Positions 37,521-53,600 of a stretch of 64,000 nucleotides of DNA are shown one piece after another. Numbering within the stretch: position 1 is the stretch's first letter; the number at the start of each line of letters is the position of its first letter. The stretch is from Eledone cirrhosa (lineage: Eukaryota), in contig OZ024743.1 in assembly GCA_964016885.1 (NCBI GenBank), positions 372,124,001 through 372,188,000 of the forward strand. The letters are read 5' to 3'. The notes under the pieces are model-generated. The model searched no databases and was not told the origin of the DNA. It worked only from the letters and a program-made list of their open reading frames with translations. Position numbers and translations under genes: made by a program.

Positions 37521-38100
37521 TTGTCTTTTGTACGTATATTTATTTTAAAAAAATAATTTTTCGTTTTATTTCCATTCGTTGTTTTATCCTCTTTTGTTAA
37601 TTTTCTTAAGTTTATTTACTAATGTGACGAACGTATTTTTCTCTTCTCCCCCCATTATTGTAATGGCTTATATATATATTAGAGAGAGTAAGAGCCTGAT
37701 GGCTGAGCTTTTGCTTTCGACAGCTGCATTAGCTGTCGAAAGAGCAAGAGCTCAACCATCAGGCTCTGACTCTCTCTAATATAGTCCAACTCTACTACCC
37801 CAAGTATCTAGTACTCTGCTGAACAATGGTCTAACTAGTATACTGGTTTAATCCTGATATTATATATATATATATATATATATATATATATATATGTGAA
37901 GTAATTCCGTCGGAAGGGTCCAGGAAAAAAGAGTGCTTTATGTAGGTTACAGAGCTTAATAGTTATGTAATAAAGAACATAAGATAATTATTTCATTTAC
38001 CAGTGGTTTCTTGAAAGCAAACAAATCTGCTTTCAGTCATCAGAATGAAAAAATCCTGGTGTTTTTATTGAATGTGGATTTGAAAACAAAAATATAAGAA

Positions 38101-39818
38101 ATGAAAGTAACAGAAAGAGTTATAGCACAGTTGATTAGGGACCGGGTGAAACTAGATGAGATGCAATCTGGGTTTGTACCAGGAGGAGGCACCACTGATG
38201 CCCTCTTCCTTGTGAGGCAGTTACAGGAAAAGTACCTAGCTAAAAGTAAGGCATTCGTCTATTTCGAGAAAGCCTTTGACAGAGTTCCATGTGCCTGGTG
38301 GGCTCTTAGAAAACTAGGAGTAGATGAATGGCTTATGAAAGCTGTACAAGCCATGTATAGGGGAGCAGTCAGCAAAGTTAGGATTAGCAATGAGTATAGC
38401 GAGGAATTTAGCGTACAGGTTGGTGTCCACCAGGGCTCTGTTCGTAGCCCTCTCCTGTTCATCATAGTCCTGCAGGCAATAATGGAGGAGTTTAAGACCG
38501 GATGCCCATGGGAACTCCTGTATGCAGATGACCTCGCACTTATAGCTGAATCTATGGTACAACTGGAGAAGAAATTCCAAACTTGGAAGCAGGGACTAGA
38601 AAGAAAGGGTCTCAAAGTCAACCTGACAAAGTCTAAGGTCCTTGTAAGTAGACTAGAAAACAGAACCCAGATCCCCTCAGGGAAATGGCCTTGCTCAGTA
38701 TGTAGGAAAGGTGTAGGTAGGAACTCCATTCTCTGCCCCAAATACAAACAATGGGTACATTCAGGAAGATTAATTAAGAATGTAGGCTTCACATGTAGCA
38801 GCTATGCTGGGACTGCAAGCATCAAACAGCCACAGGAAACAAGTACCACCAATCTCTGGGAGGGCTCTGTAGAAACAGTAGACAGCTTCTGCTACCTAGG
38901 TGACCGAATTAGCAGCGGAGGTGGGTGTTCAGAAAGTACAATAACTAGGGTAAGAACGGGATGGAACTACTGCCACTGCTAGCTGCAAAAGGCTTCTCCC
39001 TCAAAATGAAAGGCAGACTGTATGATGCGTGTATACGAACAGCAATGTTACATGGTAGTGAGACCTGAGCGCTGAAGGTGGAAGACTTACGTAGATTAGA
39101 AAGAAACGAAGCCTGCATGCTCCGATGGATGTGTAATAGTAATATATGCGAACAGCAAAGCATAAATGAATTGAGAGAGAGACTGAGCATGAGAGGAATC
39201 AAATGCTGTGTGCAGGAGAAGCGGTTGTGTTGGTATGGACATGTGATGCGTATGAAGGATGACAGCTGCATAAAAAGGTGCAGAGCACTAGAAGTCAATG
39301 GTAACCGCGGAGTGGGGAGACCCAAGAAGACCTGGGATGAGGTGATAAAAGCCGACCCTACCCAATTACACCTCTCAAAGGCGATGACACGAGCGTGACC
39401 TCTGGCGTCACGCAGTAATACAGAGAACCCGACCTCCCATGGGTACAAGCTGAAGCATATAGACAATATACCCCCTCACCCTCCCACCTCAAAGTGGTCG
39501 TGGAGGTGCCACGGCAAAAAAGCACCCAACCCACACTGTAAAGTGGACGTGTAGGCGCCACGGAAAAAAAGCACCCAGCCCACACTGTAAAGTGGACGTG
39601 TAGGCGCCACGGAAAAAAAGCACCCAGCACTCACTGTAAATGAGGTTGGTGTTAGGAAGGGCATCCAGCTGTAGAAATCAAGCCAAAATCAGTTCCTGTA
39701 TGAGCAAGGCATGGTCAGCCGACCAGACACTGCCCACAACAGGACAACCCGTCTAACCCATGCTAGCATGGAAGAACGGACGTAAAACGGTGATGATGAT
39801 AATGATGATGATGAAAGT
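38101..39818 (+). mobile_element. 5'-truncated RTE-like LINE with 8-bp target-site duplication
   Basis: ORF 38101..38982 (GFVPGGGTTDALF, VGVHQGS, LLYADDL); ~50-bp tandem repeats at 39500-39660; (GAT)n tail; atgaaagt at 38101-38108 and 39811-39818; empty site in the inverted copy at ~50910. Confidence 0.9.
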
Positions 39819-40056
39819 GAGGCTGAGGGAAGAAGAAAGATTATAAATATATAAGTATATAAACACACCCACACACATATGCACATATATATATATATAT
39901 AAATATACATACACATACACATAAATACACAAACACATGTACACACACACACACATATATATATATATATATATATATATATATATATATATATATATAT
40001 ATATATATATATATATATATATATATATATATATATATATATATATATATATATAT

Positions 40057-50591: not shown

Positions 50592-50665
50592 TGCCTTGTC
50601 CGACGAACGAATGAGGACGTTTCTTTCGTATTCGTCTTATTCGGGAAACCTCTGGTAATGAGGTA
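50592..50665 (+). ncRNA. Type-I hammerhead fold with a U4C core substitution
   Basis: tgccttgt-CCGACGA-a-cgaatgaggacg...cgtcttattcg-g-GAAA-CC-TCT-GGTA-atgaggta; 8-bp stem I including G-U pairs. Confidence 0.55.
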
Positions 50666-53600
50666 ATAATATTGTATTGTTTATTATACATTATATATAT
50701 ATATATACCCCACGTAATATTCTTCTTTCTTCTCATGTTTTATATATATATATATATATATATATATATATATATATATATATACATGTGTTTGTATATT
50801 TATGTGTATGTGTATGTATATTTATATATATATATATATATATGCATATATGTGTGTATGTGTGTTTATATACTTATATATTTATAATCTTTCTTTCTTC
50901 TTCCCTCAGCCTCACTCTCATATTTCTTACATTTTTGTTTTCAAATCCACATTCAATAAAAACACCAGGATTTTTTCATTCTGATGACTGAAAGCAGATT
51001 TGTTTGCTTTCAAGAAACCATTGGTAAATGAAATAATCATCTTATGTTGTTTATTACATAACTATATATATATATATATATATATATATATAGTTAAGTA
51101 ATAAACAACATAAGATGATTATTTCATTTACCAGTGGCCTGTGTGTCTGTGTCTGTGCGTGTGTGTGCATTATGGTTCTAAAGAAAAAGAATGAGTTAAA
51201 AAAGATTTTGAAAAAATGATTAAATTTAAGTGAAAGACAATAACAGAGATGGAAAGAAAGTGTAAGAGGAAAATGAGGAATGACGGAGAATAGAAAAAGG
51301 AATGGTTTAATTTGTGAGAAAGGAAAGAAAAAAAAATATATTGAAAGTAAAAAGTGCGTGAGAGAGAGAGGGGGGGGGGGGGGGGGTAGAAAGAATGATG
51401 AATAGAAAAATGTAACAAACAAAACCAAGTGATTTTGGAAAATATCTGAATGAATTCCATTAATTTATGACCAGATAGACAGACAGTTTGATGTATAGAT
51501 CGATAGTGTGATATATAGATAAATGGATAGATAGGTAGTATGATCGATGGAAAGAAAGAGAAGGCAAGTCATAGATATATGGGTAATAATAATAATGCTA
51601 GAAAGAGAAACTTTAGGAGTGGGCAACATACAGATAGATATATTTCTTATAGATAGAGATAGAAAGAGGAGAAAATATAAATACATAAGGCAAACGGATA
51701 GATACATACAGAGAGAAAGAGCAAGAGAGACGAGAGAGATAAAAATAAGAGATGAAAACATGAAAAGCACGAGATGATTCTGTTTAGGAATTGTAAATTC
51801 TATGATATTACGCATTGTTCGGTAACATTGTTCAGTAACGATGATGATAATAATAATAATGCTTTCTTATATAAGCACAAGGCCAGCAATTTTGGAGGAG
51901 GGGGAAGTCGATTAAATTGACTCCAGTGCGTGACTGGTACTTTATATTTTATCGACTCCGTAATGATGAAAGGGAAAGTTAACCTCGGAGGGATTTGAAC
52001 TCAGAACGTAAAGGGCCATGACTGTATGCTGAAAAGCACGGTGTCTGACGCTCTGTCGATACTGCCAATCTACCGACCTTTAGATAATAATAATAATTGT
52101 TTCTACTTTTGGCACAAGGCAGGCAATTACCCAGTACATTACTGGTACTTTATTTTATCGACCCCGTAAAATAAAGTACCAGTAATGTACTGGTTAATTG
52201 CTGGCCTTGTGAACAATTATTATTATTATTTAAAGGTCGGTGGATTGGCAGATTTCTTTATTAACCACAAGGGTTTACATACAGGGAAACATTAAGGACG
52301 GTACAAATGTGGGTTTCTGCGTGTATAAAATGAAACGCAATAACAATAATAAAGATGTAACAAAAAATAGAAACAAAAACCAAAACCACGGAGGGTTACT
52401 CATGGACAAAGGCCACAAAAGCCACGGTCACCCTTAATTAATAATAATTGTTTCTACTTTTGACACAAGGCCAGCAATTACCCAGTACATTACTGGTACT
52501 TTATTTTATCGACCCTTAATTAATAATAATGATTTCTAATTTATGTCCAAGGCCAGCAGATATGGGGGAAGCATAAAGTTAATTTAATCAACTCCAGTAT
52601 TTGATTGGTATTAGATTTTTTATCGACCTCCAGGAAGGATAAAAAGCAAAGCAGCAATGATTATGATAATAATGCAGAATTAAACATATGTAATTAGGAG
52701 TAATATATAATATTATCTCTTGTTTGATATAATAAATATTCTCCACAAATGGTGGCAGCTACAAGAAGATTAAGATGATGATGATTGGTGATAGAGGTTG
52801 ATGGTGACAGTGATGGCGTGACGGTGATGGTGATGGTGATGACGCAGCTTCGTTTACATGTTGATTTGGCTGGACTGAAGGGAAAGTGTTGGAATGAAAC
52901 GTACACGCAAACATACATACATATATATGTATATCTATGTGTACATAAATACATATATACACACACACACACACATATATATATATATATATAGATACTT
53001 ACACATACATACGTACGTACGTATATATATATAATCATATATATACATACACACACATACACATACATAAATATATACATACACATATAAAATAAACAAA
53101 CCACTCTCCACTTTCCTTCTGCTATCCATACACTCCTCCTATTAGGAGTTTAAGTAGATTAAATAAAGGAAACTATTTCAATAGAATAGGTCTTACCTGC
53201 TCCCTGTTTTTCAGTCTAATAGCAGCAGCCACGTGTACTATATAACACTTTGTCTTTAGATATGGAAGACGACGTGTTGCTCTTGTCTGTTGTGTGTGTG
53301 GAAGTGTGTGTGATATATATATATATATATATATATATATATATATATATATATATATATATATATATAAATGAAAAGTATAGAAATTGTTGTTACGAGA
53401 AGCTAACGGTATTCCATAACATATATATATATCACACACACTTCCACACACACAACAGACAAGAGCAGCATGTCGTCTTTTCATTTATATATATATATAT
53501 ATATATATATATATATATATATATATATATATGTGTGTGTGTGTGTGTTTATTTGTGATTGTCTACGTGGGCGTGTGTAAGCGTGTATGTGTTTGTAAGT

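Follow-up and report, generated by a model that had tools for sequence, protein, structure and literature searches.

The window analysed here comprises 64,000 nucleotides of Eledone cirrhosa DNA (C4:372124001-372188000 of the 3.0-Gb assembly GCA_964016885.1, contig OZ024743.1) and contains a nested set of inverted repeats built from one Penelope-like element (PLE), termed here element X, and from other repeats inserted into it, termed guests (Table 1). A 5'-truncated copy of X on the plus strand (45983-51062) is joined to an inverted copy on the minus strand (37897-45982). Non-X sequence accounts for about 8.7 of the 13.2 kb, two thirds of the region being arm-specific insertion or TA run. We consider it highly probable that the structure is a 5'-truncated Hydra-clade PLE with a head-to-head inverted 3' copy, likely produced by one insertion into (TA)n and likely expanded by about eleven guests, each in one arm only. 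The sequence is that of decayed transposons, and nothing in the locus points to a function.

A first-pass annotation made from the sequence alone had described a nested fold-back of diverged arms enclosing further independent palindromes, with most junctions in or near (TA)n. Every mirror that it had listed was recovered, with limits shifted by no more than about 50 bp. The pairs given by self-BLAST were 37959-38102/50922-51065 (97% identity), 39811-39997/50741-50921, 42060-42481/50133-50562, 42845-43403/44187-44803 and 45060-45964/46625-47639, with inverted repeats at 48127-48429, 48895-49080/49463-49648 and 49927-49982/50076-50131. The pair 42550-42640/47655-47735, which the low-complexity filter of self-BLAST had hidden, aligned at 76 of 82 positions. 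Substitution identity between arms was 95-98% in non-simple segments, with insertions specific to each arm; for X it was 96.9% over the endonuclease (EN) and untranslated region (UTR), 95.0% over the segment labelled e1, 97.7% over that labelled F2 and 97.2-98.3% over the terminal module. Mirrored pairs, diverged arms and arm-specific insertions were thus all confirmed by self-BLAST and alignment of the segments. The mirror proposed for 42120-42480 held over most of its length; its 42442-42480 part belongs to a P7-family copy that is only 90% identical to that of the right arm and is therefore likely a separate insertion. The position of the junctions was correctly described for the outer ends, which do lie at (TA)n, and incorrectly for the inner junctions of X and of guests P3, P5, P6 and P7, which do not. 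A separate small hairpin (51018-51137) closes the right end.

To define X, diagnostic segments were mapped onto 17 other stretches of the genome (20 loci, three pairs of which are adjacent). The order EN, UTR, microsatellite segments, F2, terminal module and tail was collinear in at least six of them (L281, L282, L284, L286+7, L288 and L296+7) and partial in the rest, and matches of the 3' UTR (46850-47070), F2 and the outer module fell repeatedly at the same loci. In the window this order runs outward both ways from a junction at 45980-45983, and because it does so the outer mirrors and the 45078-47620 pair are one structure, made of pieces of one element. The latter pair, which had been taken as independent, is the core of the outer one. 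The junction is placed at 45980-45983 rather than at 45964 because the right arm carries a small deletion; 44 of 47 left-side hits terminate at 45982, and the overlap between the copies was judged by eye against other copies.

Longer copies of X encode a reverse transcriptase (RT) and, after a CxCX5C linker, an EN that has CxxC and CxH motifs but lacks CCHH. RT motifs, linker and EN were read in this order in L282, L286, L293 and L296 (single open reading frame, ORF). RWK and DKT were both read in L282, DKT in L286, and DKT with RW only in L296. The window keeps only a broken 3' end, in which CxCX5C, CxxC and CxH, and no CCHH, were read by eye at 46115-46884, as in other copies; the main-copy EN is broken and reaches a stop at 46884. 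It is also split at 46346-46472 by (GT)52 and by 46 bp that match 47347-47392 exactly, a stretch lying 1 kb further downstream in the same element, from which they were copied. A C-terminal EN, RWK, DKT, CxCX5C, CxxC/CxH, a canonical hammerhead and insertion into (TA)n are the features given for the Hydra clade (PMC8557442), and by its sequence features X is an EN+ Hydra-clade PLE of a family distinct from those listed. A three-stem hammerhead motif was found in element sense in the terminal module of both arms, at 50981-51026 (plus) and 37998-38043 (minus). A scan of the window with Rfam gave no match at gathering scores; the hammerheads, which are predicted ribozyme motifs, were located with a three-stem pattern of our own that gave 35 hits in 600 kb and none in locally shuffled sequence. 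The PLE origin, (TA)n targeting, GIY-YIG fragments and hammerheads of the first-pass annotation were all upheld.

The most compact copy of X (L281) has an ORF of about 2 kb and 2.1 kb from stop to tail with 13 TA runs. The element totals about 4.3 kb, of which about 2 kb is a microsatellite-rich stretch between stop codon and hammerhead, and copies L286+7 and L296+7 are stretched to 8-9 kb in the same way as the copy in the window. X exceeds the <3 kb typical of the Hydra clade, a size that is a general description and no strict criterion. In 15 of 24 near-full-length copies (ORF-start loci), the ATG is preceded at about 140 bp by the terminal module and tail. The module is thereby identified as X's own pseudo-long terminal repeat (pLTR) end, and the tail as the beginning of the unit that follows. 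A TA run lies within 40 bp of 13 of 16 tailless X ends, and both ends in the window are at (TA)n. Recent flank capture as the origin of the long 3' region was rejected, older subfamilies having a TA/TG-rich region and an e1-like segment; gradual lengthening fits the sequences better, and in the distant copy L315 the hammerhead, read by eye, lies only about 0.5 kb past the stop. A foldback or miniature inverted-repeat (MITE) DNA transposon was likewise rejected: most copies are solo, spans vary, ends are asymmetric and there are no fixed terminal inverted repeats. Automatic repeat annotation will break the long X pLTR into several unrelated "families".

Four lines of evidence favour a single event as the origin of both arms. 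The partner arm is the best non-self hit in the genome for both the UTR and F2. Five rare alleles, spread across EN, UTR, e1 and F2, are common to both arms. Among 17 arms, the two in the window are mutual nearest over F2 and the terminal segments labelled F1 (2.4%) and over EN, UTR and e1 (3.3%). Lastly, a tail is present at the left end of the unit and absent from the right. With respect to this last feature, exactly one tail was found in 33 of 37 outward-facing pairs from five families, with two tails in one pair and none in three (p=5e-7 against one half; the loci were picked as best hits, one was counted twice, and three inward-facing pairs were kept apart), while the tailed share of all ends was 41-60%. 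The possibility that the tail always sits on the longer arm was rejected, as it was on the longer arm in 8 pairs and on the shorter in 6, the measure failing for 16 of 30. An origin of the arms from two templates was unsupported, with 0-2 sites per segment at which both alleles are common.

Several observations weigh against this reading. The outermost 200 bp (F1a and F1b) hold zero shared rare alleles, 23 of 46 other copies are as near to left F1b as the partner arm is, and left-arm F2 and F1 are 2.4% from the partner, barely closer than the 2.5% of the next copy. In L282+3, a similar 10-kb one-tailed pair, the arms are not mutual nearest copies, such that the anatomy alone is insufficient as proof of a single insertion. 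This pair (L282+L283, G000:C3:121840277-121850403) belongs to the X family and surrounds a near-full-length ORF. Certain arm-specific pieces may also be older than the insertion, should the arms derive from two units of a tandem source. Dating by arm divergence, suggested in the first-pass annotation as a means of ordering the events, was run and did not confirm an order: the guest pairs (P3 97.0%, P5 95.9%, P6 95.4%, P7 99.0%) are no less diverged than the X arms. No Pfam family was returned at E<=0.1 for the X EN pieces 46115-46345, 46468-46881 and 45708-46022; Hydra-clade ENs are described as divergent (PMC8557442). Sequence past the element ends is mirrored in 2 of 34 inverted-pair loci (L195 and L222). 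The priming steps proposed below would be carried over by analogy from a Poseidon-clade protein. Finally, none of the pieces listed crossed the junction when public runs (three contig sets and one set from restriction-site-associated DNA sequencing) were compared with 45515-46340; they gave only other family copies, and the contig sets contain 0.23-0.28 of the words.

The last result, and the AT-rich, repeat-dense nature of the region, are what an assembly or read fold-back artefact has in its favour. We regard such an artefact as extremely unlikely, as a divergence of 2-5% separates the arms, which also carry kilobases of inserts of their own (one with a target duplication), and the same anatomy occurs on many contigs; the argument of the first-pass annotation from arm divergence and arm-specific insertions was sound. 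A more serious alternative is that a single PLE insertion accounts for the inner pair alone (45060-48126), the outer F2 and F1 mirrors being separate insertions of the same high-copy family facing each other by chance. The weak F1 result and the narrow nearest-arm margins would suit this explanation, as would the abundance of the terminal module, with 1343 first-look candidates at 95-99% identity. It is nonetheless improbable: the full X order and orientation are kept in both arms across all guests, F2 has its partner as best genome hit and shares one rare allele with it, and exactly one arm is tailed.

As for the mechanism advanced in the first-pass annotation, inverted copying of neighbouring sequence was not borne out at this locus, where the arms are dispersed element sequence. 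Seven arm segments searched genome-wide gave 885-2219 first-look candidates each, the microsatellite-rich sequence that follows the first (TA)n is part of the X family, and the flanks outside 37897-51137 showed no mutual mirror. At L195, one of the two loci with mirrored flanks, the extra mirrored part has partial repeats at other places, as though P5 had been carried along as a passenger. L222 (G000:C1:141957620-141959468) is a P7-family pair inside a 99%-identical inverted duplicate of about 330 bp of flank. The single close copy of its 221-bp flank is its own mirror (99%), other relatives being 80-84% identical over half of the flank only. L222 is one clear case of locus-specific flank copying and a real exception, and the flank-copying mechanism may therefore occur rarely.

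L222 bears on a further explanation, in which an inverted duplicate of neighbouring DNA was made by fold-back or template switching of DNA at self-complementary (TA)n, whether or not PLE enzymes took part. TA runs lie at the centre of the 45-bp hairpin at 51063-51137 and of three like it in P3 loci, and across 30 sampled blocks of the genome hairpin density tracks the TA-run count (rho 0.61). In the same blocks (TA)5+ was found at the outer end of 41 of 61 close inverted clusters versus 19% of random points, yet at the inner end of only 3 of 61, and the arms end at fixed element ends. As nothing past the element is mirrored in 32 of 34 pairs, and the one-tail asymmetry would not be expected from copying one DNA end, we judge DNA-level fold-back very unlikely as the origin of this structure. 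A small fold-back as a regular trait of X ends was also rejected, with none at 24 other tailless X ends.

Table 1. Features of the X unit and its guests (window positions).
Feature	Position	Strand	Evidence or remark
(TA)n, left end of unit	37857-37895		likely target
X tail, about 64 bp, left arm only	37897-37960	-	start of next tandem unit's 5' UTR
X terminal module, inverted arm	37962-38104	-	type I hammerhead motif 37998-38043, element sense
Long interspersed nuclear element (LINE) fragment with RT, left arm only	38105-39811	+	Pfam RVT_1 6.7e-21; presumably RTE-like; about 8-bp target duplication; outside TA run
X terminal module continued, simple repeats	39812-39954	-	
5'-truncated Neptune/Nematis-type PLE, left arm only	40057-41991	+	Pfam GIY-YIG 9.2e-7; collinear copy in block B035
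X segment F2, inverted arm	42120-42441	-	
P7-family copy, tailless 3' end	42442-42546	-	hammerhead-like motif 42488-42536
X simple-repeat segment m3	42547-42639	-	mirrors 47655-47738
Very high-copy short repeat	42640-42784	+	about 90 hits per 800 kb; small fold-back 42727-42784
Guest P3, Hydra-type PLE inverted pair	42784-44871	-	ends in (TA)56
Guest G1, dispersed repeat	44872-45059		8 hits per 800 kb
X inverted arm, inner part	45060-45982	-	EN C-terminus, 3' UTR, microsatellite segments, e1
Whole-unit inversion junction	45980-45983		about 3-nt overlap between copies; no TA run
X main copy	45983-48126	+	RT thumb end, CxCX5C linker, EN, 3' UTR, microsatellite-rich 3' region
Guest P5	48127-48527	+	303-bp hairpin; tail of about 100 bp on right arm
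Guest G2, element end	48559-48897	+	hammerhead-like motif 48576-48641
Guest P6	48928-49605	+	main copy 49081-49605, inverted copy 48928-49080; both arms tailless
Guest P7	49675-50179	-	main copy 50075-49675 tailed; inverted copy 50076-50179 tailless, 118-bp deletion
X segment F2, main arm	50205-50480	+	
Guest G3, hammerhead-like terminal module	50575-50740	+	about 80% related to X terminal module
X terminal module, main arm, tailless	50741-51062	+	type I hammerhead motif, 50981-51026
(TA)15, then 45-bp inverted copy of X end	51063-51137		

The left arm holds the LINE, the Neptune/Nematis-type PLE fragment, the P7-family end, the short repeat, P3 and G1, and the right arm P5, G2, P6, P7 and G3. 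All except the LINE lie in or beside TA runs. The PLE fragment is bounded by (TA)51 and (TC)n(TA)n and carries GIY-YIG at 40253-40711 with a CX4CxxC linker and CCHH, followed by a stop and a 3' region. It thus has the CX2-5CxxC linker, CCHH and C-terminal EN of Neptune and Nematis, which, judged from what is preserved, cannot be separated here, the RT being missing. P3 consists of a main copy (44186-42784, minus) with the EN C-terminus and tail, and a tailless inverted copy (44187-44759). P3, P5, P6 and P7 are small-scale versions of the X layout, with fixed AT-rich outer ends followed by (TA)n and inner junctions without TA. When linked coding sequence was sought within 1.5 kb, no upstream EN or RT hit was found in 30 loci each of P6 and P7; for P5 the only one was that of the window itself, and for P3 there were hits at 2 of 30 loci. 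What suggests a PLE origin of P5, P6, P7 and G1-G3 is their anatomy (tail, TA and inverted copy), to which hammerhead-like motifs are added in P7, G2 and G3. The guests likely postdate X because each is confined to one arm. The nest is thus one large PLE inverted pair with later guests: the first-pass annotation was right that several PLE families had inserted into one another, and its stack of inverted duplications of neighbouring sequence was not supported at this locus.

To account for an inverted pair arising in one insertion, we propose that a GIY-YIG endonuclease would nick both strands of a self-complementary (TA)n and that each strand would prime reverse transcription on RNA of the same source locus. 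Starting at a distal site would yield the tailed arm and at a proximal site the tailless arm; both cDNAs would end early and be joined at a short overlap. The distribution of tails over longer and shorter arms is as expected if either priming can run further. A purified Poseidon-clade PLE protein is reported to cut and extend both strands of AT-rich DNA in vitro, to have two reverse-transcription start sites that bound the tail, and to be a predicted dimer (PMC11167929). Self-priming on an antisense template (PMC3846280) may be an alternative to two-site priming, and the way in which PLEs form inverted copies has been described as still open (PMC8557442). The near-strict rule of one tail per pair links the two start sites described in vitro (PMC11167929) to a single insertion event. 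Once in place, the approximately 13 TA runs of the X 3' region would be new targets, in which TA-seeking PLEs would land, bringing their own hairpins and spreading the arms; internal TA runs acting as fresh targets would explain the nesting without any special process.

To place the locus in the genome, close inverted clusters were counted with a single common pipeline. The counts were 7 in the 20-kb block containing the structure, 0-5 in 30 blocks spaced evenly over the genome and 0-4 in 10 blocks flanking the locus; block 44001-64000, which overlaps the first, reached 10. This density is above shuffled-sequence chance and merely at the top of the genome's own range. The locus is a dense instance of a structure common in this genome, and known PLE biology accounts for it. 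The 30 blocks held 61 clusters, an average of 2 per 20 kb, which scales to about 3x10^5 close inverted repeats in the genome, a rough figure in that a few clusters were counted twice and some are chance pairs of the very high-copy short repeat. Arms make up 4.3% of the sequence and contain 13 of the 35 hammerhead hits. An association of inverted repeats with PLE or hammerhead sequence, the lack of which the first-pass annotation had named as grounds for giving up its reading, was found in this sample. Tandem arrays without TA runs or inverted repeats (C1:20 Mb, C1:320 Mb, C2:20 Mb, C4:210 Mb, C4:270 Mb and L099-L100) fill 5 of the 30 blocks, in addition to a low-complexity one at C28:30 Mb, and begin about 80 kb to the right of the window.

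Octopus is reported to have an exceptionally high share of loci able to form long double-stranded RNA (dsRNA), and its hyper-editing signal is one of the two strongest in that account, which excluded octopus from the repeat-level analysis (PMC5625713). PLE ends born inverted, at about 2 per 20 kb, are a candidate source of dsRNA, if transcribed. It is a tentative and rather doubtful extension of these results that target-carrying Hydra PLEs, inserting as one-tailed head-to-head pairs by priming of both target strands at two sites, are the main builders of the approximately 300,000 inverted repeats, and thereby the source of octopus dsRNA potential and hyper-editing. PLE expansions are reported in Octopus vulgaris (PMC13282606).

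Other repeats surround the unit. A 109-bp hairpin of a dispersed family (37675-37783; hairpins also in L003, L121 and L134) lies just beyond its left end. To its right is a second nest of inverted pairs (53266-56654), whose families have 15-18 hits per 800 kb; it includes two hammerhead-like motifs (54090-54144 and 56376-56406) and a G2-family copy at 54209-54476. An older Hydra-like element at 59436-61690, broken and with the very high-copy short repeat inside, has an RT about 41% and an EN about 33-59% identical to those of X. Further LINE RT fragments were found at 20683-22854, 32787-34892, 24071-25609 and 57332-58216, the first two being direct copies 80% identical. A GC-richer stretch (12575-19102) has direct repeats of about 770 bp (12575-13340 and 16248-17056) around minus-strand gag-like frames at 14249-15881. 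The frame at 1539-2117 we take to be like the C-terminus of a Helitron PIF1-type helicase, and that at 35912-36370 is presumably like a Tc1/mariner transposase fragment.

Among known systems, L1 twin priming also involves two primers from one target site and an inversion junction with a short overlap, as in X. The pieces in twin priming are non-overlapping parts of one RNA, whereas in X one and the same 3' sequence is copied in both arms. Published work already describes inverted PLE copies, tails and TA targeting, as well as an octopus Hydra family. Literature searches, within which subscription journals and Repbase reports were largely not covered, gave no report of nested PLE inverted repeats in cephalopods and no match for the one-tail count, the long target-carrying 3' region or the genome-wide hairpin load.

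The closest relatives of X are in the Hydra clade, including Hydra-1_Obim of Octopus bimaculoides, with which it shares its EN, RWK, DKT, linker, sense hammerhead and (TA)n (PMC8557442); its RT motifs, compared by eye, resemble the Hydra-1_Obim protein (PMC8557442). The hammerhead stems of the two differ, which makes X another family, and Hydra-1_Obim is listed without a pLTR, whereas X has one (PMC8557442). Listed Hydra families are 1.1-3.0 kb, compared with about 4.3 kb for X, which is longer because of the microsatellite-rich sequence between stop and hammerhead, and tails are described as 30-40 bp, compared with about 60-110 bp in this genome (PMC8557442). One Hydra-clade family, Penelope-13_HM, is listed with an inverted 5'-truncated copy (PMC8557442). 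Short hammerhead modules related to PLE pLTRs are also described as non-LTR retrozymes, and G2, G3 and P5-P7, the last three with no ORF tied to them within 1.5 kb, could be retrozyme-like derivatives; retrozymes form head-to-tail tandem arrays, whereas these guests are solo or head-to-head (bioRxiv 10.64898/2026.07.22.740005). As described for Penelope, X has a head-to-head inverted copy beside a 5' truncation, a tail at one end, insertion of PLE into PLE, and a likeness to two start sites around the tail (PMC3846280, PMC11167929). According to the same sources, Pen1_Av captures host DNA as a spacer, of which there is none at this locus, and the Penelope tail is called optional, in contrast to the near-strict one tail per pair and the kilobase nesting of this genome (PMC3846280, PMC11167929).

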